DNA of 52,780 nucleotides from an uncultured Candidatus Saccharibacteria bacterium (lineage in GTDB: Bacteria > Patescibacteriota > Minisyncoccia > Phycocordibacterales > UBA9973): the NCBI GenBank assembly GCA_964412965.1, contig CAYPQU010000001.1:91771-144550 (forward strand), read 5' to 3'. Below are positions 1,586 to 20,574 of this stretch, one piece after another (within the stretch, counting starts at the first letter, position 1; each line of letters begins with the position of its first letter). Under the pieces are notes generated by a model, which was not told the DNA's origin, ran no database searches, and was given only the letters and a program-made list of their open reading frames with translations. Both the position numbers and the translations under genes were made by a program.

Positions 1586-4006
1586 CTATTTCAAGTCTCC
1601 CCAATTTTTACCAATCGAGACTGAAACAACTAGGGGAACATTTTCTTTGTCACCCAAAAACTCCTTAGGAATAATATTTTCTAATGATTTTTTAATTACA
1701 GAAGATACCTCTTTACAATATTCATCCTTCACTTCATAAATTAATTCATCATGAACTTGTAAAATAAGATCTGCTTTGTCTAATAGATTATTCCTGGAAA
1801 GAGTTTCTTCTGCCTTTTTCATTCCTATTTTTATGATATCCGCCGTTGCTGTACCTTGAATTGGAGCGTTAATGGCCATTCTTTCTGCCATTGCGCGAAT
1901 AAAAGGGATTGGAGATTTGATTGTCGGAAAGTATCTTTTTCTTCCAAATAAAGTTTCGGTATAGCCATGTTTTTTTGCGAAAATTTTTATACTTTCTAAA
2001 TATGATGCTATCTGAGGAAATTGCATAAAATAGTTGTCGTAGAAATTTTGGGCCTCTTGTCTTCCAACTTCTGCTTTTTGACCAGTCTCAAAATCTTCAG
2101 TTAAGAGATTTTGTCTAAGAGCATTAACCCCCATTCCATAAAGAATTCCAAAATTAATAATTTTCGCTCGTCTTCGCATTTCTTTTGTTAAACCATTTTC
2201 ATCTACGCCAAAAACCTTCATGGCGACAGCTTGATGAATATCTTTTCCTTCTTTAAATGATTTTATAAAATAAGAATCCTGAGATAAAAGAGCTGCTATT
2301 CTTAATTCGATTTGTGAATAATCAAAAGATACCAGAGAATGACCTTCCTTTGAGATAAAAGCATTTCGAATACTTTTGCCCCGCTCTGACCGGGTTGGAA
2401 TATTCTGGAGGTTAGGATTATTTGAAGCAAAACGCCCAGTAGTCGTCCCTGTTTGTATAAAACTAGCATGTAACCGCCCATCTTTACCAACTAAGGCAGG
2501 AATTGTGTCTATGTAAGTCGATAGAAGTTTTTGCAATTCTCTATGTTTTAATATTTCTCTAATTACAGGATGACTGTCAACAAGCTTCTCTAGCTCGCTC
2601 TCTCTGGTTGATATTGACCCTCCTGCACTTTTTTTAATACCTTTAGTAGAAATTCCTAATTTACCAAAAATTATTTCTCCAATTTGCTTAGGAGAATTAA
2701 TATTGAATTCTTGACCAACTAATTTAAAAATTCTATTTTCTATTTTTTTTAATTCTATGTGATACTCTTCGCTTATTTTTTTAAAATATTTTAAATCTAT
2801 CAATATTCCGTTTTTTTTCATTTTGTCTATTATTGGGATGATTGGAATTTCTATGTTTTGATAAACATACTCAAGTTTCTCTTTTTTTATGTCCTCTTCC
2901 AGCCTGATCATTGCCTCTTTGAAATTACGGCTTCCATTATAATGAACAATTTCGTCAATGTCAGGATTAGTCCTTTCTGAGTTTAGTAGCCAGTAAGCTA
3001 TTTTAGCTTTTTCTACTTCAGTCTTATCTTCTAAGTGATTTTCATCATTAGTCTCTTCTTTTTTATTATCAATTTCTCCGTCAAAAAGCTTCAAAAAACG
3101 CTCCTGCAAACTTCTAAATTCTAACTCTCTAAAAAGATTGGCAACTTTTTCTTTGTTTACTTCTTTAATCCAACTTTCTTTGGGAATATTAAATTTAATC
3201 GGAGCGTCTAACCTAATTGTAGCTAGCGTCTTTGAAAATAGGGCTTCATCTTCTCCTTCTTTTAAAAGACCAAGGATTCTTTCAGTTATTCCAATTTCTT
3301 TAAAATGTGATTCATTTTTTTTAATATTTTTATAAATATTTTCGATCGTTGAATATTTTGAAATTAAATTTGTCGCTGTTTTTTCTCCTATGCCTTTTAT
3401 CCCGATAATATTATCTGATGGGTCCCCCCTTAGTCCCTTGTAGTCAGGTAAAAAAGATGGGGCAAAACCAAATCTTTCAAAAACCTTTTTCTCGTCATAT
3501 AAAATTGTGTCATTTATACCCTTCTTTAGGGTGTAAACATAAACAAAGTCTTGTTTAATTAGTTGAAGAGTATCCATGTCTCCAGAAGCGATAATGATTT
3601 CATATTTGTCTTTCTGGTTCTTTAATTGTTCCGTGATTGTCCCCAGTAAATCATCGGCTTCAAATCCTTCACATTCATAAATTGGAATCGAGAATGTTCT
3701 AAAAAAATCTCTGGCTCGAGTAAGCTGAAAAATTAAAGCGTCATCTGCTTTGGCTCGTCCAGCTTTATAATTTTCATAAGCTTCATGTCGAAAAGTTTTT
3801 TTGGGTAAATCAAAACACGCGATCACATAATCTGGCTTTAGCTCTGTGATAATCTTGAATAACATTGTGGCCAAACCATAAATAGCACCGGTTGGCTCTC
3901 CTTGTGAATTATTAAAATCGGGCAATGCATGATAAGCACGGTGAATAATCGCATGAGAATCAAGCAGAATAATCTTTTTTTTGCTTTCAAGATTGGCTTT
4001 TGGCAT
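1586..4006 (-). CDS. polA: DNA polymerase I (5'-3' exonuclease plus polymerase; proofreading domain largely absent)
   Basis: LLDSHAIIHRAYHALP, EADDLLGT, GDPSDNIIG, TGRFASNNPNLQNIP, DYSQIELR, AKIINFGILYG, LQVHDEL. Confidence 0.97.
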   Translation of the reverse strand: MPKANLESKKKIILLDSHAIIHRAYHALPDFNNSQGEPTGAIYGLATMLFKIITELKPDYVIACFDLPKKTFRHEAYENYKAGRAKADDALIFQLTRARDFFRTFSIPIYECEGFEADDLLGTITEQLKNQKDKYEIIIASGDMDTLQLIKQDFVYVYTLKKGINDTILYDEKKVFERFGFAPSFLPDYKGLRGDPSDNIIGIKGIGEKTATNLISKYSTIENIYKNIKKNESHFKEIGITERILGLLKEGEDEALFSKTLATIRLDAPIKFNIPKESWIKEVNKEKVANLFRELEFRSLQERFLKLFDGEIDNKKEETNDENHLEDKTEVEKAKIAYWLLNSERTNPDIDEIVHYNGSRNFKEAMIRLEEDIKKEKLEYVYQNIEIPIIPIIDKMKKNGILIDLKYFKKISEEYHIELKKIENRIFKLVGQEFNINSPKQIGEIIFGKLGISTKGIKKSAGGSISTRESELEKLVDSHPVIREILKHRELQKLLSTYIDTIPALVGKDGRLHASFIQTGTTTGRFASNNPNLQNIPTRSERGKSIRNAFISKEGHSLVSFDYSQIELRIAALLSQDSYFIKSFKEGKDIHQAVAMKVFGVDENGLTKEMRRRAKIINFGILYGMGVNALRQNLLTEDFETGQKAEVGRQEAQNFYDNYFMQFPQIASYLESIKIFAKKHGYTETLFGRKRYFPTIKSPIPFIRAMAERMAINAPIQGTATADIIKIGMKKAEETLSRNNLLDKADLILQVHDELIYEVKDEYCKEVSSVIKKSLENIIPKEFLGDKENVPLVVSVSIGKNWGDLK

Positions 4007-4543: not shown

Positions 4544-7309
4544 TTATTGATTTTTAGGTTCTTTGTTGTAATAAGTTCTTGCTATTAAAACAATCAATAA
4601 TATTAACAAGATTATAAACAACCATCCAACCAAACTTAGTCCTAAGAATCCTCCTTGGAAAGCTGTTGCTCCTAATAGGCTACCTGAGGCATCTCCTGGA
4701 TTATTCAGCACATAGGCCATTGCATTTTCTTGTGCTCCGTTAGTGTTGGTGTAAATCAAGATAGCTGTAGTTACAATCTGAGCTCTTGTAGAGTCTATTG
4801 AATTAACTCGTGCCAGGAAATAAATAATACCTTCTTCTTGTGAAGATAAGTCTTCTATTGGTACAGATAATATTCTATCGTCCATAGAATATGTTCCGGC
4901 TGAGTTGTTTGTTACAGTAATTCCTTCTGGAATATAAACCTGAACCATAGGATTTCGCAATGTTGACTTGCTAATGTTCTTGTAATAGACAGAATATTCT
5001 ACCACATCTCCTTTGTTTAGGGTTGCATATTTATTTTCTATTTCAAGCATTACAGGTGAGGCAGATCCAACTACAGTAGTACCCTGTGTAACTCTAGTAG
5101 TTGTAGAACCTGAGCTACCGCCAGTGCCAACAACAGAGTATCCTGGTGTTCTAAATACTTCTATCGCCCCTCGAGAAATTCCATTATTCCCACTGGCAAC
5201 CGCTTGGAAAAAATAAATCGTATTAGGGGCTAAACCAGAAACATATTCTGTAAAGTTTACACTTCCAGAAACAGTTTTAGCATTGGTTCTATTTCCCATA
5301 TTTACAGTTGTTCCATAATCAAAATAAACATTTTGAGAGCTAGAACTCGTGTTGGTTAGTAATCCGTTTAACGAGGCGCTACTTTGTGTTACATTTGTTG
5401 CAACAGTAGTGACAACACTGGTGTTGTATTCATAAATGTAATCTTGCCCAACATTAATTTTTAAAGTTTCAGTATCGTTATTTTTATCTCCATAAGCTCT
5501 AAGTATATATGTGGTTGTTGCCGATGGATAAACAATCTCACTTCCACTCTCTGGAACTCTTCCAATGTTTGATATAGTTAAATTTTTACAATTAGTAGTT
5601 CTCCATGTTAGTTTAGATAGTTCACCTTGGTCTATATAGGAATCGGAAGTTCTAAAACTATTAATTTTACAGCTATCACTGCTGGTGCTATCACTATTTC
5701 CTCCATCAACATAAATCCTTACAGAGTCTTTAACATATGAACCATTTGGATTATATGCTGTTAATGTATAAGTAATATCTCCGTCAGGATAAACTGTTTT
5801 TGATCCATCCTCTGAAACATTTCCAATATTTGAAATATTTACACGATCACAATTTGTGGTGTCCCATCTTAATTTTGTATAATCACCTTCTTCAATAGAA
5901 ATATTGGATGCAGAGAAGCTATCTATTCGACAATTATTTTTATTGTCTATCTGGTCATCTACATACACAGAGATTGTTCTTGAATCTATTGTTCCGTTTA
6001 CCCCTGCAGCTGATAATGTGTAAGACTTCGTGCTTGTTGGCCAAATTATCTGAGAACCATTTTTACTTAATCCGTAAGAACCAATACCACTGATTGAGAT
6101 ATTAGCACAATTTACTGTTGTCCAAGAAAGAAGAGATGAGTCTCCTTTTTTAATCGAGGAAGGATTTGCACTAAAAGAAGTTATTGTACATTCGTTATTG
6201 TCAACAACAATATCTGGTGTACAGTAATTACCATTCCAGTAGGAACCCGAAACACAAGAAGCTGATGCACTTGTTTGGTCTAGAAGCTTGCCGTTGTTGT
6301 ATAAGTAATAGGTTTTACTACCATTAGACAAACTAATAATTTTGTTTCCATTGTTACCATTTGCAACAGTGTTTCCATTAGATGTTACAGAGGAGGTATT
6401 TTCTGGATTTGTGGTTGTCCAAGAAAGATTCACAGAACAAGAACTATTTCCAGAAGAAATAATACAAGAAGATGGAGAGGTGTTAATGTCACCAGACATT
6501 TCATTTACAACCTGGTTAACATTTACTTTTGCATTAGAAGAGTCTTGATTTGAAGATCCAATAGCATTTAGAGTATAAATTGTAGTTGAAGAAGGATAAA
6601 CGATTTTGCTTCCAGAATAAGCAACAGTCCCAAGGCCTTCAATATTTACGGAATTGCAGTTAGTAGTTGTCCATGAAAGCTTTGAGGATTCCCCTTTGCT
6701 TATAGTAGAAGGAGTTGCGGTAAAATCAGTGATTGAGCAAGTTTTTGGTTCTACAACATTATTGCTAACCTTAAAACTAACAACCAAAGATCCTTGGGTT
6801 GCCCAACCTGGAGCAATTGATCCAATAGAAAGACCTCCGCTTAAAATTTCTGAACCATCCTGCCCATTTAATAGAGGTGTTAGGGTTTGACTTGTGTTTT
6901 CGGTATACCATTTAACAGAATCAAAGGTTAGTGATTGTTCTGGATTTGTTGTTATATAAACTGGTCCAAAAGAAAGATTCCCCTCACTTGAAGTAATGCT
7001 TCCAGTGAATCTATGATTTGTAGAGGTAGCAGTTCCTGCACTAAGGAAAACTTTTGTATTGTTGGCAATCCTCGTGCCTGTATTGTGATAATAAATTCGA
7101 ACACTAACAGTGTCTCCTGGATTTGCAGGAATATTGGTTCCTGTCCAACAAGGGTTGCTCCACCCCTCTTTTGTGGTTGCATTTGCAACATTAATAGACG
7201 GACAGTCGTTTGAAACTCCGTTCCAAGTAGAAGCAAAAACACCTTGCGCTAAAAACAAAGCTCCGAGCGCAAATATTCCGACTATTATTTTTTTTATATA
7301 TTTTTTCAT
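4544..7309 (-). CDS. Large surface protein: signal peptide, tandem Ig/PKD-like modules, FN3-like and DUF11-like domains, C-terminal TM anchor
   Basis: Signal peptide ending VFA; four C.I.SF.A....I..G....L.W.T.NC repeats plus one degenerate copy; TTVATNVTQSSASLNG (FN3-like); NKGDVVEYSVYYKN (DUF11-like); hydrophobic C-terminus followed by RTYYNKEPKNQ. Confidence 0.7.
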   Translation of the reverse strand: MKKYIKKIIVGIFALGALFLAQGVFASTWNGVSNDCPSINVANATTKEGWSNPCWTGTNIPANPGDTVSVRIYYHNTGTRIANNTKVFLSAGTATSTNHRFTGSITSSEGNLSFGPVYITTNPEQSLTFDSVKWYTENTSQTLTPLLNGQDGSEILSGGLSIGSIAPGWATQGSLVVSFKVSNNVVEPKTCSITDFTATPSTISKGESSKLSWTTTNCNSVNIEGLGTVAYSGSKIVYPSSTTIYTLNAIGSSNQDSSNAKVNVNQVVNEMSGDINTSPSSCIISSGNSSCSVNLSWTTTNPENTSSVTSNGNTVANGNNGNKIISLSNGSKTYYLYNNGKLLDQTSASASCVSGSYWNGNYCTPDIVVDNNECTITSFSANPSSIKKGDSSLLSWTTVNCANISISGIGSYGLSKNGSQIIWPTSTKSYTLSAAGVNGTIDSRTISVYVDDQIDNKNNCRIDSFSASNISIEEGDYTKLRWDTTNCDRVNISNIGNVSEDGSKTVYPDGDITYTLTAYNPNGSYVKDSVRIYVDGGNSDSTSSDSCKINSFRTSDSYIDQGELSKLTWRTTNCKNLTISNIGRVPESGSEIVYPSATTTYILRAYGDKNNDTETLKINVGQDYIYEYNTSVVTTVATNVTQSSASLNGLLTNTSSSSQNVYFDYGTTVNMGNRTNAKTVSGSVNFTEYVSGLAPNTIYFFQAVASGNNGISRGAIEVFRTPGYSVVGTGGSSGSTTTRVTQGTTVVGSASPVMLEIENKYATLNKGDVVEYSVYYKNISKSTLRNPMVQVYIPEGITVTNNSAGTYSMDDRILSVPIEDLSSQEEGIIYFLARVNSIDSTRAQIVTTAILIYTNTNGAQENAMAYVLNNPGDASGSLLGATAFQGGFLGLSLVGWLFIILLILLIVLIARTYYNKEPKNQ

Positions 7310-7435: not shown

Positions 7436-8137
7436 TTATAGTGGCGCTCCACCTGGACCACCACCTCCACCTAGGGGTGCACCACCTGGACCACCAGGGT
7501 TTGGTGGCGTAGTTGGTGCACCACCTGGACCACCGCTACTACCACCACTTGCAAGATAGTAAATTAGACCAGCTATGCTTACTCCGAGAGTTATTCCCCC
7601 AAATATTATCAAACCCGGGCTAATTTGTTTTTTAAATTTCTGGGGTTTAGGAACGATTTCTCTTGGTTCACTATTAATTTTTTCTTTGTAAACAATAATG
7701 GGTTTGGTTAAGAAAACAGTGTCCTTAACCTCTTTTTCAATAACCCTGTCTAGGATTTTCTCAACAACAATGACCCTTTTAACAGGACGGATATACTCTA
7801 TTTTGTTTCCACATTTAGCGGAATAAAAAACCCCGGATGAATCAGCATATACAATTTCTCCCTTAGGAAAAACTATGTAGTTGATATCCAGTCGATTGTG
7901 TTCCCCTTCAGCAAATCTTACATAGTACTCTTCTTCGAGTACATAAATATCATAACCTGAAGGACGATATCCGTAGTAAATGTCTCGGGCTTCTGGTCTT
8001 TTGGACCACATAGCTCCTTGTGTTATTTTCTCATATCCATCTGTGCGCACGACCCCATAAATTATTTCTTTATGAATTTGTGCAAAGACCTGAGTGCTCA
8101 CTATCGCAAGCAACACCAGAATAAAAAACTTTTTCAT
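7436..8137 (-). CDS. Hypothetical exported single-TM protein with Gly/Pro-rich cytoplasmic tail
   Basis: MKKFFILVLLAIVSTQVFA signal peptide (start 8137; ORF track start 8164), TM GLIIFGGITLGVSIAGLIYYL, three GGPGGAP repeats, own sigma70 promoter. Confidence 0.7.
   Translation of the reverse strand: MKKFFILVLLAIVSTQVFAQIHKEIIYGVVRTDGYEKITQGAMWSKRPEARDIYYGYRPSGYDIYVLEEEYYVRFAEGEHNRLDINYIVFPKGEIVYADSSGVFYSAKCGNKIEYIRPVKRVIVVEKILDRVIEKEVKDTVFLTKPIIVYKEKINSEPREIVPKPQKFKKQISPGLIIFGGITLGVSIAGLIYYLASGGSSGGPGGAPTTPPNPGGPGGAPLGGGGGPGGAPL
7476..7534. repeat. 20-bp identical direct repeats encoding GGPGGAP units
   Basis: GGTGCACCACCTGGACCACC at 7476 and 7515; a third degenerate copy near 7443. Confidence 0.85.
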
Positions 8138-8239
8138 TTTTTTGATTTTAATATTGTTATACACACCCCCAAAAAGGTTTGTTTTTATTCGTTTTTTAGG
8201 AGAATATACAACAACACTAAAATCAGACTATTTGCTTAA

Positions 8240-8337: not shown

Positions 8338-10038
8338 ATGGTTATATCATTTGACGATGAAAAACAGATAAAAGGTCTTGAGGATTTGAGAAAACAAGAA
8401 GAAGAAAATCTCATTGAGTTTATTGCTCAAGCTAAATACGGAATACCTCCTATCAATCTAGCTGGTATGACAATAGACAATGATGCTCTTAGAGCAATTA
8501 CCGAAAAAGAAGCAAGAGAATTTGGAATAGCTCCCTTTAAACTTGTTGGTAAAAATTTACACATAGCGATCAGGTCTCCCCAACCAGAAAAATTACAACA
8601 ACTAAGTGAGTACTTTGTCTCTAAAAAATATAACCCTTATTTTTATATGGCATCAATGGCCAGTCTTGAAAAAGTATGGGAAAGATACAAGGAATTGTCT
8701 TATGCTTCAGAATCTAAAATAGGAACTGTTACAATCACAGGTGAGGCTTTGCAAAAAATAATACCTGAAATTAAAAATGTAGACGATATCACCAGGCTCA
8801 TCAAAGAAGCAGAGAAAGAAAAAATCCGAACAACTTCAAAAATACTAGAAGTTGCAATTGCTGGAGCGATTGCAGTTAACGCATCCGACATACATTTTGA
8901 ACCAGAAGAAAAATTTGTTCGACTAAGATTTAGACTAGATGGAGTTCTTCAGCAATTAATGGAGATCTCCCCAGAAGTTCATAAATTCATCAATTCTCGA
9001 ATAAAACTTATTTCAGGATTAAAAATAACAACCAGTGAAGCAGCTCAAGATGGGCGATTTAGTTTCTTTTTTGGAGATGATGAAATTAATCTCCGTGTTT
9101 CTTTTATGCCAGGTGCGTACGGGGAATCAATAGTTTTACGTATTCTTAATCCAAAATCTATTAGGCATGAACTTGAAGAATTTGGAATAGAACAAAAACT
9201 GTACGATGTTTTTATGGATGAAATCAAAAAACCAAATGGTTTAATTCTTTTAACAGGTCCAACCGGTTCAGGTAAAACAACCACCTTGTATGCATTTTTA
9301 CAAAGAATTTATTCCAAGGAAATAAAAATAATTACAATTGAAGACCCTATCGAATATCACCTTCCTGGCATTTCGCAAACACAAGTCGATGAAGACAAGG
9401 GTTATACATTTTTCTCAGGATTAAGGTCAGCCCTTCGACAAGACCCAGATGTGATAATGGTAGGAGAAATTCGAGATCCAGACACAGCAAAAACAGCAGT
9501 TGAATCAGCATTAACAGGACACCTTGTTTTTTCTACCCTTCACACCAACAATGCTGCGGGAGTTATCCCAAGACTAATCGATCTGGATGTAAACTCAAAA
9601 ACTCTAGTTTCTGCGTTATCACTTTCTATTGCTCAAAGACTAGTTCGCAAGCTCTGTGATAATTGTAAAAAAGAAAAACCTTTCACCGATAAAGAAAAAA
9701 ATCTTGTCCTAGATATTTTAAATAAAGCCAAAAATAATGGTAAGGATATTGATAATTACGGAGTAGATATGGGTAAAGAATTTATTACCTATGAAGCAGT
9801 AGGCTGTGATAAGTGTAATCACACGGGGTATCATGGGCGAATAGGAATTTTTGAAGCCATTAAAACCGACGAGGAAATAGAAAAGATTATTCCACTAAAC
9901 CCTAGTGAAAGAGAAGTTAAAAAAATAGCCAACACTCAGGGAACATTAAATTTAAGAGAAGATGGGATAATAAAAGTCTTAAAAGGAATCACTTCTTTAG
10001 AAGAAGTAGCCAGTGTAGTAGATCTCGCTGAGGAGTAA
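8338..10038 (+). CDS. pilB: GspE/PilB family type IV pilus assembly ATPase
   Basis: ASDIHFEP, GPTGSGKTTT Walker A, TIEDPIEY, LRQDPDVIMVGEIRD, STLHTN, CDNC...CDKC zinc site. Confidence 0.9.
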   Translation: MVISFDDEKQIKGLEDLRKQEEENLIEFIAQAKYGIPPINLAGMTIDNDALRAITEKEAREFGIAPFKLVGKNLHIAIRSPQPEKLQQLSEYFVSKKYNPYFYMASMASLEKVWERYKELSYASESKIGTVTITGEALQKIIPEIKNVDDITRLIKEAEKEKIRTTSKILEVAIAGAIAVNASDIHFEPEEKFVRLRFRLDGVLQQLMEISPEVHKFINSRIKLISGLKITTSEAAQDGRFSFFFGDDEINLRVSFMPGAYGESIVLRILNPKSIRHELEEFGIEQKLYDVFMDEIKKPNGLILLTGPTGSGKTTTLYAFLQRIYSKEIKIITIEDPIEYHLPGISQTQVDEDKGYTFFSGLRSALRQDPDVIMVGEIRDPDTAKTAVESALTGHLVFSTLHTNNAAGVIPRLIDLDVNSKTLVSALSLSIAQRLVRKLCDNCKKEKPFTDKEKNLVLDILNKAKNNGKDIDNYGVDMGKEFITYEAVGCDKCNHTGYHGRIGIFEAIKTDEEIEKIIPLNPSEREVKKIANTQGTLNLREDGIIKVLKGITSLEEVASVVDLAEE

Positions 10039-10040
10039 AC

Positions 10041-10070
10041 AAAACACCCCGACTTTTGTCGGGGTGTTTT
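10041..10070. terminator. Bidirectional intrinsic terminator (AAAACACCCCGAC family)
   Basis: 13-bp perfect stem AAAACACCCCGAC-TTTT-GTCGGGGTGTTTT just after the pilB stop. Confidence 0.85.
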
Positions 10071-10227
10071 TTAAGAAAACATAAATCTCTAAACAATCCT
10101 TTGAGAAAATAATTTTTCAAAGTAATATAATATTACAGGATAGTCCCAGTAAACCAAAGGAACCAGGGCGTCCTACTCTAAGATATAGAGCCTGTGGCCG
10201 ATTGCTTAGAGATTTATATCCTCTTAA
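10071..10227 (-). ncRNA. Candidate structured ncRNA (6S-like long closing stem); identity unconfirmed
   Basis: Ends 10071-10098 and 10200-10227 form a 28-bp helix on the minus strand (4 G-U pairs, no mismatch) enclosing several internal hairpins. It is flanked by a minus-strand TGCTATACT (10279-10287) and the 10041-10070 terminator. Confidence 0.5.
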
Positions 10228-10299
10228 TTTAAATGCTATAATAAGGAAGCGAACTTCCGTTTAACCTTAATTATTTAAAGTATAGCATATCGTAAAAAA

Positions 10300-11292
10300 A
10301 TGTCAAGTCCTGATAAAAACAAAAAAGAAGATAGCTTTTTAGACCAAACATTGAGGCCGAGTGTTTGGGATGAATATATTGGTCAAGAAAGCATCAAGAA
10401 TAATTTAAAAATACTTCTAGTTGCAGCTGAGGAGAGATCTCATCCAGCAGAACACATTCTTTTCTATGGACCACCAGGCCTAGGAAAAACAACTTTGGCT
10501 CATTTAATAGCAAAAGAAACAAATCGCCAGATGAAAATTACTTCTGGCCCAGCTATCGAAAAAGTTGGGGACCTTGCTTCAATACTTACAAATTTATCTC
10601 CCGGAGATATTGTTTTTATCGACGAAATTCACAGACTAAACAAAATGGTTGAAGAAGTCCTCTACCCTGCGATGGAGTCTGGTGTTCTAGATATAATAAT
10701 AGGTAAAGGACCTTCCGCTCGCACGATACAACTAGACCTTCCTCCTTTTACACTAATTGCTGCAACAACTCGCGTAGCTCTTATTTCATCTCCACTTAGA
10801 TCAAGATTTTCTGGAGGAGTTTTTCGTCTAGAATTTTATAATAACGAAGAGATTAAAAAAATAATCAAAAGATCCGCAAAAATTCTAGGAGTAGAACTAG
10901 AAGACGAAGCCCTAGAAGAAATTAGCAAGCGAGCTAGATTCACCCCAAGAACAGCTAATTATTTGCTTAAAAGGTGTAGAGATTATGCTCAAGTAAATAA
11001 AACAATCCTTTCTAAAGAATCAGTCAAGAAAGCACTCGCTTTATTAGAAATAGACGAACTAGGACTATCTTCTTCTGATAGAAGAATTTTGGACATCATC
11101 ATTAGTAAATTTAATGGTGGCCCAGTAGGGCTAAAAACAATTTCTGCAGCAACGGGAGAAGAAGAAGCAACAGTTGAAGAAGTTATTGAGCCATATTTAA
11201 TCCAACTTGGTTTATTAGACAGAACAATTCGTGGTAGAATTATAACAAGAAAAGGCTACGAACATCTCGGATATGAATACAACAAAGAATAG
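10300..11292 (+). CDS. ruvB: Holliday junction branch migration helicase RuvB
   Basis: LRPSVWDEYIGQ, GPPGLGKTT, FIDEIHRL, LIAATTR, RFTPRTANYLL, VIEPYLIQLG. Confidence 0.97.
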   Translation: MSSPDKNKKEDSFLDQTLRPSVWDEYIGQESIKNNLKILLVAAEERSHPAEHILFYGPPGLGKTTLAHLIAKETNRQMKITSGPAIEKVGDLASILTNLSPGDIVFIDEIHRLNKMVEEVLYPAMESGVLDIIIGKGPSARTIQLDLPPFTLIAATTRVALISSPLRSRFSGGVFRLEFYNNEEIKKIIKRSAKILGVELEDEALEEISKRARFTPRTANYLLKRCRDYAQVNKTILSKESVKKALALLEIDELGLSSSDRRILDIIISKFNGGPVGLKTISAATGEEEATVEEVIEPYLIQLGLLDRTIRGRIITRKGYEHLGYEYNKE

Positions 11293-11764
11293 AATACTTT
11301 CCATCGACCCAGGATACGAAAGAATAGGAGTTGCTGTTTTAGAAAAAGACTCTTCGGGAAAAGAAATACTTTTATTTTCTGAATGTTTCAAAACTTCATC
11401 TAATATTCTACACTACGAAAGACTCGCTTCAATAGGAGAAGAACTTGATTCTGTAATCAAAAAATATAAACCAAATATAATGTCAATTGAAAAATTGTAT
11501 TTTACGACAAACCAAAAAACTGTTATGGGTGTTTCTGAAGCAAGAGGGGTTATGCTTTTTGTCGGAAAAATAAACAATCTAGAAATTTTTGAATATACTC
11601 CACCGGAAATCAAAGTTGCAGTTACTGGATACGGAAAAGCTACAAAAGAAATGGTGATGGCGATGGTTCCTAAATTAATTAAAATTGAAAAAACAATAAA
11701 GTCAGACGACGAGCTAGATGCAATAGCTATCGGTCTAACATGTTTTGCTTGTGAAAAATTCTAA
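11273..11764 (+). CDS. ruvC: Holliday junction resolvase RuvC
   Basis: ILSIDPGYERIG, IEKLYF, EYTPPEIKVAVTGYGKATK, DDELDAIAIG. Confidence 0.95.
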   Translation: MNTTKNRILSIDPGYERIGVAVLEKDSSGKEILLFSECFKTSSNILHYERLASIGEELDSVIKKYKPNIMSIEKLYFTTNQKTVMGVSEARGVMLFVGKINNLEIFEYTPPEIKVAVTGYGKATKEMVMAMVPKLIKIEKTIKSDDELDAIAIGLTCFACEKF

Positions 11765-12133: not shown

Positions 12134-12173
12134 AATTAAAAACACCCAACAAATCGGGTGTTTTTAATTTTAA
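12130..12173. terminator. Bidirectional terminator between the convergent acidic ORF and tyrS
   Basis: 18-bp perfect stem TTAAAATTAAAAACACCC / GGGTGTTTTTAATTTTAA, 8-nt loop. Confidence 0.85.
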
Positions 12174-13363
12174 GTAAAAGATATTTTTACAAACCTCTTC
12201 TTGCCTATTCGGTAAACTCCTTCAAAAACTTTCTGATTGTATTCAATAATTTTTTGATTTTCTCCTAAAAGAACAACAGCCCCACCATCTACTAACCGCC
12301 TAAAATCACTCTTGGAAGAAACTATTTTATTTAAAACCAAAACGTTAACAAGCGACTCATCTTTTTTTGTTGTTATTACTTCTACGTCATCAGGAATTTC
12401 TTTTTGTGAAAAAGTTCTTTGCCAACCTTTTTCAGCTAACTCACCTTTTTCTTGACCGTAAAAAGCAGAAACCACTTCCCTGGCTAATCTCATTTTATTT
12501 TCTTTAAAACAAGGATTGTCTCCCTTGAGCTCTTTTTGTATTTTTTCTATTTCTTCATCTTCAACATTTGTACAAAGCTCCAACGCAGACGGAATCATCT
12601 CGTCTGTCCAACTCATAACTTTTCCATACATATCATCTGGTGTGTCTGTAATTGTGACCATATTACCTTCTGTCTTACCCATCTTTTTTCCATTAGGATC
12701 TTCTAATAATTTCATTGTGATAACAAATTTTTCTTTGCCTTTCATGCTTTTCAACATATCCCTACCACAGAGCATGTTGAATGTTTGATCATTACCGCCA
12801 ATTTCTCCATCTACATTCATTGCCACTGAATCATAAGCTTGCATTAGTGGGTACATAAATTCGTGAATAAAAACAGGTTTACCTTCGTTCATTCTTTTTT
12901 TAAACATATCCCTTTCTAGCATTTGCTGAACTGTCATTTGTGAAGCCAAAGACAAAACTTCTTCAAACCTCATTTTTGAGTGCCATTTTGAATTAAATCT
13001 AAGTTCTGCTTTATTTTTTCCACTAAATGAAATTATTTTTGAGAGTTGTTTTTTGTATCCCTTTAAATTTTTTAAAACTTCTTTTTTAGTAAGTTGTTTT
13101 CTTGTTGCACTTTTATCTGTTGGATCACCTATCATGGCGGTAAAATCACCCAAAAGTAGTATTATTTTGTGTCCAGCTTTTTGAAATTCACTTAATTTTT
13201 TTACAGGAATAGCATGACCAAGGTGCAAACTAGGACCTGTTGGGTCAATTCCTAAATAAATAGTTAATTTTTCTCCTTTTTCCAGTCTTGATTTTAAATA
13301 TTCACGAGATGGATAAATAGAGGCCACCCCGCGATTTAGTATCTGTTCATTAATCTTATTCAT
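12170..13363 (-). CDS. tyrS: Tyrosine--tRNA ligase
   Basis: YLGIDPTGPSLHLGH (HIGH), YPLMQAYD, GGNDQTFN, KMGKT (KMSKS), C-terminal S4-like domain ending RIGKKRF. Confidence 0.97.
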   Translation of the reverse strand: MNKINEQILNRGVASIYPSREYLKSRLEKGEKLTIYLGIDPTGPSLHLGHAIPVKKLSEFQKAGHKIILLLGDFTAMIGDPTDKSATRKQLTKKEVLKNLKGYKKQLSKIISFSGKNKAELRFNSKWHSKMRFEEVLSLASQMTVQQMLERDMFKKRMNEGKPVFIHEFMYPLMQAYDSVAMNVDGEIGGNDQTFNMLCGRDMLKSMKGKEKFVITMKLLEDPNGKKMGKTEGNMVTITDTPDDMYGKVMSWTDEMIPSALELCTNVEDEEIEKIQKELKGDNPCFKENKMRLAREVVSAFYGQEKGELAEKGWQRTFSQKEIPDDVEVITTKKDESLVNVLVLNKIVSSKSDFRRLVDGGAVVLLGENQKIIEYNQKVFEGVYRIGKKRFVKISFT

Positions 13364-15996: not shown

Positions 15997-16263
15997 TTAT
16001 TTTATATCTATAACGCAAAAACCAGGATCTAATTCTTGAGCTAGGTCTTTTAATATTTTTTCTTTCCTTATTATTATTTCATTTTTAAAAACAGGAGAAC
16101 ATTTTAAATAAACAATTCCGTTTTTATAATCAAAAAAATCATCGTTAATATTAAAAGAAATGTTTTTTGAGACAATATCTCTAATTATTTTTTTTGTTTC
16201 TTGCTTTTGATAAATTATTTTCTTAAATTTATCAAAAAAACCATTTATATGATTATATTCCAT
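15997..16263 (-). CDS. Hypothetical protein, DciA/DUF721-like
   Basis: Overlaps the dnaN stop (TAATG); KNGIVYLKCSPVFKNEIIIRKEKILKDL resembles the DUF721 beta-beta-alpha core. Confidence 0.5.
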   Translation of the reverse strand: MEYNHINGFFDKFKKIIYQKQETKKIIRDIVSKNISFNINDDFFDYKNGIVYLKCSPVFKNEIIIRKEKILKDLAQELDPGFCVIDIK

Positions 16264-17360
16264 TATCTGTTCATTGGCATAACGAGATACATAAAAGAAG
16301 TATCTCCTACCCCTCTTAAAATCATCGCCTTATTATTACCACTAAGTTCTAGGCTTAGACTATCAACAGAAACTGACTGTAAACAGTCTAATATATATTT
16401 AAAGTTAAAACTAGCGGAAACATCTTCTCCGGAAAAAGCTCCATCTATCTCTGTGTTATTTTCTCCAATGTCTGAATTTTTTGATTCGAAGTTAAATAAT
16501 TTTTCGTTAGGTTTTATTGTTATTTCTACTTGATTAAATTTATCAGAAAAAATATTTGATATTTTTAAAGAAGACAATAAATCTTGTTTTAAAATAATGG
16601 CTTTTGTTGTTGGGTTTTTAGGAATTATTTGTTTATAATCTGGAAAACTTCCATCCACAACCCTTGAGGTCAAATAAATATTATTTGTTGATAAAGATAT
16701 TTGGTTTTTTTGTAAATTTATAGTGATATCGTCATCAATATTTTCAAATATTCTTATTATTTCAACTGTATTTTTGAATGGTATTAAAATTCCATCAAAG
16801 TTTAATTTTTGTTTAATCTTTATTTTTTTCTCTGCCAATCTAAATGAGTCTGTTGAAACAAAAACCAACATATCATCTTCTGGATAAACATAAACACTGC
16901 CTATCTCTGGTTTAATCTCTGAAATTGAAGCGCTATAATAAACTGACTTTATTCCCTCTATAAACTTTTTATTTTGAAGAATTATTGATTCACCCTCAAC
17001 TGTTGGTATTGTTGGAAAATCTTCATGAGGAATACTTTTTAATAAAATAGTGCTTGTTTTTGTTTTAACTAAAAGATTACCATTAACTAATTCAAATGTA
17101 ACATTAAAATCTCCTTGTAAAATGGAAAACAAAGAAGAAAGAATATCTCCTCTTACGGCCACAGTACCTTCTTTTTCTATTTTTGCGGGGACTTCTATTT
17201 CTATACCTATATTTAAATTTGTCGCTCTTAATTTAAGAGTTTTTCCTGACGCTACCCACAAAACAGATCCCAAAACTGGTAGTGTTAGATTTTTACCAGT
17301 TACCCTTTCTACAGAGATTAGAGCATTTTTAATTTTATCAATTGAGCATTCTATTTTCAT
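16263..17360 (-). CDS. dnaN: DNA polymerase III beta sliding clamp
   Basis: LRATNLNIG, STDSFRL, SRVVDGSFPDYKQIIP, YLVMPM; immediately downstream of dnaA. Confidence 0.97.
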   Translation of the reverse strand: MKIECSIDKIKNALISVERVTGKNLTLPVLGSVLWVASGKTLKLRATNLNIGIEIEVPAKIEKEGTVAVRGDILSSLFSILQGDFNVTFELVNGNLLVKTKTSTILLKSIPHEDFPTIPTVEGESIILQNKKFIEGIKSVYYSASISEIKPEIGSVYVYPEDDMLVFVSTDSFRLAEKKIKIKQKLNFDGILIPFKNTVEIIRIFENIDDDITINLQKNQISLSTNNIYLTSRVVDGSFPDYKQIIPKNPTTKAIILKQDLLSSLKISNIFSDKFNQVEITIKPNEKLFNFESKNSDIGENNTEIDGAFSGEDVSASFNFKYILDCLQSVSVDSLSLELSGNNKAMILRGVGDTSFMYLVMPMNR

Positions 17361-17587
17361 ATAAGTTATTAGATTAATTAGTATCTATTTTATATATTAT
17401 AAATTATTATTAATACTATGAGTGTGGATATGTGGATTAGTTGATTTATTGTTTTAAAATAAGATTGAAAATAATTTTTTTTATTTAATATCTCTTTTAA
17501 AAATGTTTATTAATTTTATAAAAACATATTAGCTGATAATTTTCCACTTTCTATTTCCACAATAGTCACACCTTATCCACAGCTTTA
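17361..17587. other. Replication origin oriC (dnaA-dnaN intergenic part)
   Basis: Perfect TTATCCACA at 17573-17581; near-consensus boxes at 17423-17431, 17431-17439, 17540-17548 and 17553-17561; AT-rich unwinding region with seven NAN trinucleotides at 17402-17422. Confidence 0.85.
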
Positions 17588-18937
17588 TTACTTTAACATT
17601 ATTCTGATTTTTTCAATTTCTTGTAATAAAGATGGATCTGTTTTTAAATCCTCTTTAACTTTTAAATGGGAGTGAATTACAGTAGTATGGTCTCTGTCTC
17701 CTAACTTTTGTCCAATTAAAGGATAAGAAATATTAAAATCTTCTCTTAAAATATACATTGCAACCTGTCTAGCCCTAACAATTTCTTTTCTTCTTGTTTT
17801 ATCATATATAACACTCTCTGATAAATTGTAGTGATCAGCAATAACTTTAACTATATCAGCAATAGCAACTGATTTTTTAGGCTTAATATTATTCTTAATA
17901 AGATTTTTAACTTCAGTAATGGTTAAAGCCTTGTTTTTGAGTTGAGATTGACACAATACGGCATTTAAACTACCTTCTAGTTCTCTTATGTTACTATCAA
18001 GAGATTCTGCTAAGAAACTAATAATTTCAGGGTCTACAATACTGTTAGTTGATTCAAATTTTGCTTTAATAATTGCAATTCTAGATTCGTAATCTGGTTC
18101 TATTATTTGAACAGTCATTCCAGAAGCGAATCTTGATTGAAGTCTTTCTTCTAATCCTTGTATAAAATTAGGGTGTTTGTCTGAAGAAAAGATAATTTGT
18201 TTGTTGTTTTCATAAAGAGTATTAAAAAGATGAAATAGTTCTTCTTGTGTTTTGTCCATTTTTGAAATAAATTGAATGTCATCCATAATAAAAACATCAT
18301 ATTTTCGATACTTCTCTTTAAAAGCATTTGGATTTTTATTTTGAATAGAATTTATATAATCAATAGCAAATTTTTCTAAACTAACATAATAAACTCTTTT
18401 TTCTGGGTACTTAACTTTAATAGTATTACCAATTGATTGAATCATGTGTGTTTTTCCAAGACCAGTTCCGCCATAAACAAAGAAAGGGTTATAGTTTTTT
18501 CCAGGATCTTGAATTATTGCCTGAGCAACAGCATAAGCAAGTTCATTAAAAGGTCCTACGATAAAAGAATTAAAGGTATATTTGGGATTTAGATTGTCTT
18601 CCTTATTAATATACAAATCATTTAAAGGAAGTTCTTTGTTTAGATTCATTTTGTGGGCTACTTCTGTTTCCTTGCCCCCACTCCTCATTTCTTGTTTGTT
18701 GATAACATATTCAACTCCTCGAACATTTTCATTGTTACTAATTAGAGTTTTTAGTATTAGTTTGTGAAATTTATTATAAAGCCAGTCTTTAACAAATTCA
18801 TTAGGAACACCAATTTCGACTATTCCACCCTCTTCTTTTAAAATAGAGGTATTTTTAAACCAAGTCGTAAAATTGGCTTTAGAAATATTCATTTCTATTT
18901 CATTTAAACATTTATTCCAAAATTCTTTTTTATCCAT
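17588..18937 (-). CDS. dnaA: Chromosomal replication initiator DnaA
   Basis: LNPKYTFNSFIVG, YNPFFVYGGTGLGKTH, DDIQF, RLQSRF, NIRELEG, DRDHTTVIHS. Confidence 0.98.
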   Translation of the reverse strand: MDKKEFWNKCLNEIEMNISKANFTTWFKNTSILKEEGGIVEIGVPNEFVKDWLYNKFHKLILKTLISNNENVRGVEYVINKQEMRSGGKETEVAHKMNLNKELPLNDLYINKEDNLNPKYTFNSFIVGPFNELAYAVAQAIIQDPGKNYNPFFVYGGTGLGKTHMIQSIGNTIKVKYPEKRVYYVSLEKFAIDYINSIQNKNPNAFKEKYRKYDVFIMDDIQFISKMDKTQEELFHLFNTLYENNKQIIFSSDKHPNFIQGLEERLQSRFASGMTVQIIEPDYESRIAIIKAKFESTNSIVDPEIISFLAESLDSNIRELEGSLNAVLCQSQLKNKALTITEVKNLIKNNIKPKKSVAIADIVKVIADHYNLSESVIYDKTRRKEIVRARQVAMYILREDFNISYPLIGQKLGDRDHTTVIHSHLKVKEDLKTDPSLLQEIEKIRIMLK

Positions 18938-19824: not shown

Positions 19825-20574
19825 ATGATTAATCTATGGAATACTTTTTTATACGAACCAATTTATAATGCCCTTATTTTTATTATAAACAACGTTACTT
19901 TTGGAGATGTTGGTTTTGCTATCGTAATTGTTACAATCCTTGTTAAGGTTATTCTTTTCCCCTTAACTAAAAAATCAGCTCGTAGTCAAATCTTAATGAA
20001 AAAGATGGAGCCTGAAATAAAAAAGATAAAGCAAGATTATCCCAATAAAGAAGAGCAAGCCAAAAAAACCCTGGAACTCTATAAAAAGTACGGGACAAAT
20101 CCTTTCTCTGGTTGCCTTGTTGTCCTTTTGCAAATGCCGGTCATTTTTGCACTGTACTATGTCTTTTATGAAGGGCTAAAGATTGATGAAAGCCTTATAT
20201 ATTCATTTATCCAAATTCCTACGACACTCTCAACAAACTTTTTAGGTATTTTTGAATTGGGAGAAAAAAGCTTGTTTTTGGGTGTTTTAACTGGTTTAAG
20301 CCAGTTTATACAAGGATATTTAGCTTCACCTGTTAAAAATAAACAGATAGAAATTATAAAGGACAACGATTCGGTAAAAGACAAAAAGGCTGATTTTCAA
20401 GAACAGTTGTCCGATAGCATGCAAATGAATGTAAAATACATACTACCTGTATTTATTGGTTTTATCGCCTGGAAAATATCTGCTGCTGTGGCTTTATACT
20501 GGACAGTAAGCAACATTTTTACTATTCTACAAGAGTGGTATATAAGAAGAAAATTATCTAAAAATGTAATATAA
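19825..20574 (+). CDS. yidC: YidC/Oxa1 membrane protein insertase (short form)
   Basis: FAIVIVTILVKVILFPL, MKKMEPEIKKI, NPFSGCLVVLLQMPV, ALYWTVSNIFTILQ. Confidence 0.95.
   Translation: MINLWNTFLYEPIYNALIFIINNVTFGDVGFAIVIVTILVKVILFPLTKKSARSQILMKKMEPEIKKIKQDYPNKEEQAKKTLELYKKYGTNPFSGCLVVLLQMPVIFALYYVFYEGLKIDESLIYSFIQIPTTLSTNFLGIFELGEKSLFLGVLTGLSQFIQGYLASPVKNKQIEIIKDNDSVKDKKADFQEQLSDSMQMNVKYILPVFIGFIAWKISAAVALYWTVSNIFTILQEWYIRRKLSKNVI

Follow-up and report, generated by a model that had tools for sequence, protein, structure and literature searches.

6S RNA (ssrS; RF00013), the face-to-face promoter pairs of IS10 and coliphage 186, the orphan RNA classes and the bacterial Y RNAs are the described systems that come closest to the element considered here. 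This element is a self-contained RNA gene located on the minus strand, at positions 10036-10306, of a 52.8-kb stretch of contig CAYPQU010000001.1 from an uncultured bacterium (hereafter the window, which means the whole analysed stretch of 52,780 nucleotides). The gene lies between pilB and ruvB and is oriented opposite to ruvB. By comparison with its relatives, its product is a previously undescribed stand-alone structured small RNA of the Paceibacteria (Patescibacteria), and it defines a new RNA family of which ~190 copies were detected.

With 6S RNA the new RNA shares a size of ~160 nt, a stand-alone character, ends paired in a long closing helix, an elongated shape and a strong housekeeping-type promoter. 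It differs from 6S RNA in that it has no covariance-model match, its centre is formed by a covarying four-way junction instead of a large open bubble, the sequences of its helices are conserved and its linkage to ruvB is strict. Face-to-face promoters whose transcripts overlap at their 5' ends have been described for pIN and pOUT of IS10, with RNA-OUT, and for pR and pL of coliphage 186. As in those systems, the promoters at this locus would fire at each other over a few tens of base pairs, one of them within the start of the other gene, and promoter competition plus a short antisense overlap is predicted. In contrast to them, the antisense product has a large, conserved and independently folded domain, the overlap misses the ruvB start codon and the adjacent upstream sequence, and the arrangement is known here from sequence alone.

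The orphan RNA classes (raiA, OLE and HEARO-type) are likewise multi-helix, lineage-restricted RNAs defined by conservation and covariation, but they match the new RNA neither in sequence nor in structure, and both the host lineage (Paceibacteria) and the genetic association (ruvB) are different. The Y RNAs (bacterial YrlA) resemble it in combining a long, sequence-conserved stem made of both ends with a multi-helix module, within a protein-binding RNA. However, a T-loop-like or Ro-binding motif was not seen by eye in the alignments, there was no Rfam match, and no rsr gene was noticed nearby, although no systematic search for rsr was made. Paceibacteria are ultra-small members of the candidate phyla radiation; they are abundant, uncultured and genome-reduced, and few non-coding RNAs are known in them. 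The retention of a ~160-nt, complex, covarying fold at one locus across the class, together with a near-consensus promoter, suggests an important function. It also provides a new RNA family to annotate, one missed by Rfam 15, and a clean four-way-junction RNA for structural work.

Conservation and fold of the RNA

The first-pass annotation of this DNA, made from the sequence alone, had proposed an unannotated structured non-coding RNA, either a divergent 6S RNA or a new one, between pilB and ruvB. All the sequence features it listed exist in the window. The arms at 10071-10098 and 10200-10227 make up an inverted repeat of 28 nt in which 24 of the pairs are Watson-Crick; the other four positions, as had been described, are G·U when the minus strand is read and A·C when the plus strand is. 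The inverted-repeat arm occurs once in the window, against 0 copies expected in shuffles. The arms enclose a minus-strand RNA of ~158 nt. When a 241-nt minus-strand RNA was folded, the energy was -71.9 kcal/mol (z = -7.4), while the plus-strand fold gave z = -4.2.

The first sample of relatives was obtained from BLASTN searches and from 80 genome loci selected by their RuvB. The closest RuvB relatives belong to metagenome-assembled genomes labelled Paceibacteria, Paceibacterota, Nomurabacteria, Zambryskibacteria, Lloydbacteria or Minisyncoccia, which places the organism in the Paceibacteria, within the Patescibacteria. By BLASTN, an intergenic element with 67-87% identity was present upstream of ruvB in most of the 80 loci, and a covariance model built from 37 MAFFT-aligned copies detected the RNA in ~75 of them. 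Without exception the RNA of these genome loci ran opposite to ruvB, and only in L049 and L071 did it not lie directly upstream of that gene. Metagenome contigs were then scanned with a pattern taken from the RNA only (CTCTAAG...AGGAC...YATCCT), which retrieved 120 stretches; the models confirmed 74 + 42 of these. The homologues amount to ~190 Paceibacteria loci in total.

Covariation was measured on an alignment made by MAFFT, blind to structure (alignment A2), which was tested with a model of 56 pairs. In this alignment 95.8% of the cells pair, against 38-51% in slid controls where the 3' partner was moved by 1-3 columns. Changes on both sides were found in 25 of the 56 pairs, and none of 500 shuffles matched the observed values (0/500). 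In a model-fitted alignment of 72 sequences, 36 of 48 pairs showed changes on both sides. Taking the paired cells together, G·U outnumbered A·C by 529 to 52 in these 72 sequences and by 767 to 102 in 97 sequences, and therefore the molecule under selection is the RNA read from the minus strand of the window. The strand, about which the first-pass annotation was uncertain, is thus settled as minus. That annotation had made its structured RNA depend on conservation and covariation in relatives and on a discrete transcript; the first two were found, which supports an unannotated structured non-coding RNA. The pairs with the highest mutual information were nearly all nested pairs or extensions of helix P5, and no pseudoknot or tertiary covariation was detected by mutual information.

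The predicted core fold is a four-way junction of helices P1, P2, P3 and P5, connected by linkers of 0, 2, 2 and 0 nt (2 + 2 unpaired bases); its internal loops are small, roughly 3x3 and 1x2. All the following elements are on the minus strand. P1 is a closing helix of 27 bp, in which the 5' strand (10200-10226), with the sequence-conserved inner core AAAUCUCUAAGCAAUC, pairs with the 3' strand GAUUGUUUAGAGAUUUAUGUUUUCUUA (10072-10098), which ends in a U-rich tract. The inner 15 bp of P1 are conserved in sequence and include one G·U pair, which is G-C in about one quarter of the sequences. P2 is a mini-hairpin of 3-4 bp, GGCC-ACA-GGCU (10189-10199), and all three of its pairs covary (72-97 sequences). 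P3 begins with P3a, formed by 7 pairs between 10180-10186 and 10125-10131; six of the seven change on both sides in the MAFFT alignment and five of the seven form in the window. It continues with P3b, where GUAGGA (10171-10176) pairs with UCCUGU (10135-10140) and AGGA/UCCU is invariant. The distal part of P3 (10143-10169) starts with a single G-C pair (10169/10143) that covaries to A-U (G-C 33, A-U 4) and is followed by P3c, CCUGG (10163-10167) with CUGGG (10145-10149), which contains an invariant tandem U·G/G·U (U·G in 85/97 and G·U in 90/97 sequences). The apex of distal P3 (10150-10162) is variable, and in some relatives it is a UCCG, CUCG or UUCG loop of the UNCG tetraloop type. Finally, the P5 hairpin CUUUG...CAAAG (10099-10122) is contiguous with the 3' strand of P1; all its pairs covary, and mutual information lengthens the helix.

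In L013 and L044 this consensus fold comes to within 0.2 kcal/mol of the best fold computed from the single sequence, and the lowest-energy single-sequence folds of L013, L044 and L027 all contain P3a. Some of the hairpins described earlier have a narrower distribution. The inner CTCTA/TAGAG hairpin does exist in the window, but apart from the window only L001 has it, and it is not a conserved feature; in the conserved fold this segment pairs instead with a 3' AU-rich segment in helix P3a. In the same way, the GGAAG-TTCG-CTTCC hairpin at 10245-10258 is present in the window but lineage-specific. A further hairpin proposed earlier, P4 (GUAAU/AUUAC), was discarded since it is unpaired in distant homologues when alignment A1 is read by eye; in alignment A2 its bases form the 3' strand of P3a instead.

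Promoters, transcript and linkage to ruvB

The RNA has a near-consensus promoter of sigma-70 type, TTGACA-16-TGcTATACT (10306..10279, minus strand), with 11/12 matches. Its extended -10 element TGCTATACT was located by promoter scan at 10279..10287 and its -35 hexamer TTGACA lies at 10301..10306, where the complement falls within the ruvB start ATGTCAA (codons 1-2 plus one base). Transcription is predicted to start near 10272, so that the primary transcript would carry a 5' leader (10227..10272, minus strand) including the hairpin at 10245-10258, GGAAG-UUCG-CUUCC in the RNA. The first ~24 nt of this leader are antisense to the predicted 5' untranslated region (UTR) of ruvB.

Among the relatives, 143 loci were compared, and all except 3 carry TTGACA-N13-15-TGnTAnnnT on the RNA strand ahead of P1. 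Between the -10 element and P1 there are anything from 8 to ~185 nt, which places the leader outside the conserved core. In some lineages there is a second promoter just 12-17 nt from P1, so the conserved functional unit is the core bounded by P1 and not the leader. In several lineages a separate promoter places the start of the RNA just ~5-8 nt ahead of P1. The hexamer is TTGACAT, the complement of the ruvB start ATGTCAA, in 108 of 143 loci, and codon 2 of ruvB is TCA in 108/108 of these loci, beside hypervariable RuvB residues 4-9. This points to selection on the antisense -35 sequence and not on the protein. The RuvB start ATG TCA A (Met-Ser) is constant in the window (10300-10308) and in 108 related loci.

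On the plus strand, the promoter scan located the extended -10 promoter of ruvB(C), TGCTATAAT, at 10234-10242, with a ruvB start site predicted near 10249. The opposition of TGCTATACT and TGCTATAAT, already pointed out in the first-pass annotation, holds in the window and in part of the relatives. In the window the gap between the two facing -10 elements (10243-10278) is 36 nt and the predicted start sites are ~23 nt apart. Of 141 loci, 81 (those of the closer half of the family) have a ruvB-strand TGnTATAAT inside the RNA leader that faces the RNA -10 element, mostly with a gap of 22-47 nt. The facing promoters, overlapping footprints and overlapping transcripts that characterise convergent promoters are all predicted here from the sequence. 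The antisense overlap stops short of the ruvB start codon and of the ~27 nt upstream of it, where the ribosome-binding site would lie. As a separate observation, in ~80 loci that share ancestry the gaps between facing -10 hexamers cluster near 24, 35 and 46 nt, in steps of about one helical turn.

The association with ruvB is close to absolute. In all the RNA-pattern loci with enough flanking sequence (109/109), ruvB is found directly upstream, on the opposite strand and at 42-362 nt, and the positions of ruvC, tyrS and pilB are more variable. In L049 and L071 the RNA has moved away from ruvB yet is intact and keeps its own promoter. On the other side of the gene, the usual downstream neighbour is pilB, in convergent orientation. 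Six loci (L002, L017, L019, L035, L038 and L076) carry open reading frames (ORFs) of 205-245 aa, on the strand of the RNA, inserted between the RNA and pilB; none of them matches a Pfam family, and they do not make up a single conserved family, although three of the six show weak similarity to each other. Judging by their N-termini, which resemble signal peptides or lipoprotein signals, they may be secreted or lipoprotein-type proteins.

Next to the 3' strand of P1 lies an intrinsic terminator with a perfect 13-bp stem and a 4-nt loop (10041-10053 / 10058-10070). Since A-runs and T-runs flank this hairpin, termination is possible both ways, and the terminator is common to pilB (plus strand) and the RNA (minus strand), which confirms the bidirectional terminator reported earlier at this place. 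Of 186 loci, 121 have six or more U within 8 nt at the 3' end of P1, and 55 have a separate G+C-rich hairpin plus T-run at most 80 nt downstream; the window carries a weak U-tract plus the terminator common with pilB. These sequence features place the predicted end of the gene at the U-rich end of P1 and/or at the terminator shared with pilB.

Expression was assessed on unstranded, low-depth assembler contigs with ragged ends (Logan). At identities of at least 95% to the close relative L001, contigs of the RNA-type libraries X43, X44, X45 and X46 cover positions 2436-2612, 2456-2705 and 2382-2564 of this locus. They span the RNA gene only, plus the last ~47 nt of pilB in X46, and within the 2.2-kb stretch the gene bodies of pilB and ruvB are uncovered. 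In the metatranscriptome X51, a contig begins 3 nt from the position equivalent in L001 to the predicted ruvB start site. The coverage pattern in L001 is weakly consistent with an abundant discrete RNA.

Possible roles of the RNA

In Rfam 15, no family matches any part of the window at the gathering score. When all models were searched at E <= 10, including those of 6S RNA and of the signal recognition particle (SRP), there was no match to the RNA in window positions 9950-10400 or in seven diverse homologous loci; a permissive search gave only weak matches, by assorted small-RNA models, to the terminator hairpin. The comparison with the 6S (RF00013) and SRP models that the first-pass annotation had asked for was therefore negative on both counts, and it is the new non-coding RNA, the alternative given there, that fits the evidence. 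SRP RNA (4.5S) was also discarded on the basis of its helix 8, which has a conserved GNRA tetraloop and symmetric/asymmetric loops, given that the hairpin apices of the new RNA are variable (UCCG, CUCG, UUCG, AU-rich). A cis-regulatory leader or riboswitch was rejected because no conserved gene follows the element on its own strand, convergent pilB being the usual neighbour. A ruvB leader would have to be read from the other strand, and since the element precedes the ruvB promoter it lies outside the ruvB 5' UTR. A mobile element, such as a miniature inverted-repeat transposable element, does not agree with a single copy in the window and a fixed synteny (109/109), and a small coding sequence was rejected since no reading frame is conserved across the element. 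BLAST against E. coli genomes and phages gave nothing meaningful, and nothing relevant was found in the literature on 6S or structured RNAs in the candidate phyla radiation/Patescibacteria or on RNA motifs associated with ruvB.

The reading that we favour, to which we give an even chance of being right, is that of a new stand-alone RNA that probably binds protein, with a promoter that interlocks and competes with that of ruvBC. The conserved bases are in helices and small internal loops, almost none of them is single-stranded and there is no seed, which makes a protein-binding role the most likely one. The RNA would have a structural role, as scaffold or decoy within a ribonucleoprotein, and would not act as a base-pairing antisense regulator. 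Taking into account the known size of the polymerase footprint and start sites only ~23 nt apart, both promoters would not be occupied at once. A polymerase placed at one promoter would exclude the other, so that, with a -35 hexamer inside the ruvB start region and the promoters facing each other, the outputs of the RNA gene and of ruvBC would be inversely coupled by promoter competition or transcriptional interference. The same interlock would weld both genes together in evolution, and the near-absolute linkage to ruvB may be due to it. This reading offers a testable tie, by way of the interlocked promoters, between an RNA gene and the regulation of the recombination genes ruvBC.

Several observations weigh against this interpretation. 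The proposal of protein binding comes from the pattern of conservation only, and no partner gene co-localises with the RNA. No facing ruvB extended -10 was found in the more distant half of the family, and the interference geometry therefore does not extend to every member. For the window's own sequence, the loss of two P3a pairs and competition from the local CUCUA/UAGAG hairpin put the consensus fold 4.5 kcal/mol above the lowest-energy one. Several of the unstranded, low-depth contigs run into the 3' end of pilB or across the promoter. Moreover, the shuffle controls overstate the significance of the covariation since related sequences are not independent, a problem which the slid controls and the MAFFT alignment lessen but do not remove.

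A purely cis-acting control module for ruvBC, where antisense transcription is what matters (by interference and the ~24-nt overlap) and the folded RNA is a stable, self-terminating by-product, would account for the linkage in 109/109 loci, for the -35 in the region of the ruvB start codon in 108/143 and for the facing -10 elements 22-47 nt apart in ~80 loci. It would also account for the Lloydbacteria-like relatives, which keep the promoter at the ruvB start despite the RNA having a second promoter of its own. We nevertheless regard it as fairly unlikely: a 158-nt four-way junction with invariant loops and helices, kept at RuvB identities of 63-95%, far exceeds what interference needs, loss of the linkage to ruvB (L049, L071) leaves both the RNA and its own promoter intact, several lineages start it ~5-8 nt before P1 from a separate promoter, and the overlap misses the ruvB start codon and the ~27 nt upstream. 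A highly divergent 6S RNA, binding the sigma-70 holoenzyme as an open-promoter mimic and templating short product RNAs, is in our opinion unlikely too. The size and the closing stem are those of a 6S RNA (150-200 nt with paired ends, here a core of ~158 nt closed by the 27-bp P1), P1 and P3 give an elongated shape, the gene is single-copy with a very strong sigma-70-type promoter, and we found no literature report of a 6S RNA in the candidate phyla radiation/Patescibacteria. However, no 6S-type model of Rfam matches the window or the seven homologues at E <= 10, and the 6S-like rod around an AU-rich bubble implied by the first-pass annotation did not stand. The covarying helices P2, P3a and P5 occupy the site of the bubble and leave only 2 + 2 unpaired junction bases, and therefore the open-promoter-like bubble that defines 6S RNA is absent. 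A 6S role would also leave unexplained the conservation of the helix sequences and the absolute linkage to ruvB.

The shape of the fold brings in a different idea, that of a Holliday-junction mimic which, as decoy or cofactor, would titrate or guide RuvA, RuvB or RuvC. The junction is a nearly perfect four-helix one with linkers of 0-2 nt, the linkage to ruvB is absolute, and the RNA sits directly upstream of ruvB, the place of ruvA in typical ruvAB operons. On the other hand, RuvA and RuvC recognise DNA junctions and RNA helices are A-form; L088 has a RuvA homologue 10 kb from ruvB, which indicates that the RNA is no simple RuvA substitute, and the sequence-invariant loops of P3 would remain unexplained. 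We consider this mimicry very improbable. If it were true, an RNA would imitate a DNA recombination intermediate as 6S RNA imitates an open promoter, and more generally, if the partner were RNA polymerase or the Ruv proteins, the RNA would be a new case of RNA mimicking DNA structure. An aptamer that senses a ligand, that is, a riboswitch-like small RNA with a metabolite bound at the four-way-junction core, has an equally slim chance. Conserved nucleotides in the junction and internal loops and a compact multi-helix fold of aptamer-like size would suit it, but there is neither a conserved same-strand downstream gene nor an expression platform, the 27-bp P1 is too stable for a switch helix and no Rfam riboswitch model matches. 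Least credible of all would be an element acting as DNA (a protein-bound inverted repeat, a cruciform or the remnant of a miniature inverted-repeat transposable element) or a plus-strand ruvB leader. A long inverted repeat does adjoin a promoter, and the plus strand folds better than its shuffles (z = -4.2). Nevertheless, the excess of 767 G·U over 102 A·C would have no meaning in DNA and excludes the plus strand, the internal hairpins covary, the element is single-copy with fixed synteny, the ruvB promoter is downstream of it and no conserved ORF spans it.

Gene context and minor observations

In the gene list of the window, pilB (8338-10038, plus strand) precedes the RNA gene and ruvB (10300-11292, plus strand) follows it, overlapping ruvC (11273-11764, plus strand). 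The surrounding genes include polA (1586-4006), tyrS (12170-13363), dnaN (16263-17360) and dnaA (17588-18937), all on the minus strand, and yidC (19825-20574) comes next after dnaA. Three DnaA boxes on both strands, one of them a perfect TTATCCACA, are located between dnaN and dnaA (17423-17581), and this interval is the probable replication origin, about 7 kb from the RNA gene. A 921-aa ORF (4544-7309, minus strand) has no Pfam domain, and the tail of a 242-aa ORF (7436-8164) is rich in glycine and proline. Neither a tRNA nor a tmRNA was detected by ARAGORN, and no tRNA gene is present anywhere in the 52.8 kb of the window.

In this lineage ruvB is partnered with ruvC and not with ruvA. The sole RuvA homologue within 1.5 Mb of compared DNA is that of L088 (12690-13259, minus strand). 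The possibility that the RNA replaces RuvA was ruled out, given that L088 encodes RuvA.

Two further arrangements were observed near ruvB in some relatives. In nine loci (L027, L028, L039, L041, L043, L044, L050, L055 and L063) there are 2-3 tandem TGTGGA(T/A)NN repeats, DnaA-box-like and ~11 nt apart, located in the RNA leader between the RNA core and ruvB; in L027 they are just upstream of the ruvB extended -10, and L043 has one perfect TGTGGATAA among its repeats. These repeats may reflect control of ruvB by DnaA or by a different factor. In the Lloydbacteria-like loci L062, L066, L067, L069 and L079, an extra unit of ~130 nt with the invariant motif (C/U)(C/U)AGUAUGCCA(C/U)(G/A) is found upstream of ruvB, between the promoter at the ruvB start and a second promoter, TTGACAA...TGATAnAGT. 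This second promoter drives a divergent copy of the RNA in L062, L067 and L069, and no copy was detected in L066 and L079. The ~130-nt unit may be a second small RNA. Other RNA motifs were present in two of the compared loci: a DUF805b motif above the gathering threshold in L044 (7419-7453, minus strand; 49.2 bits) and a type III hammerhead ribozyme just under threshold in L076 (7627-7681, plus strand; 41.8 vs 48.5 bits).

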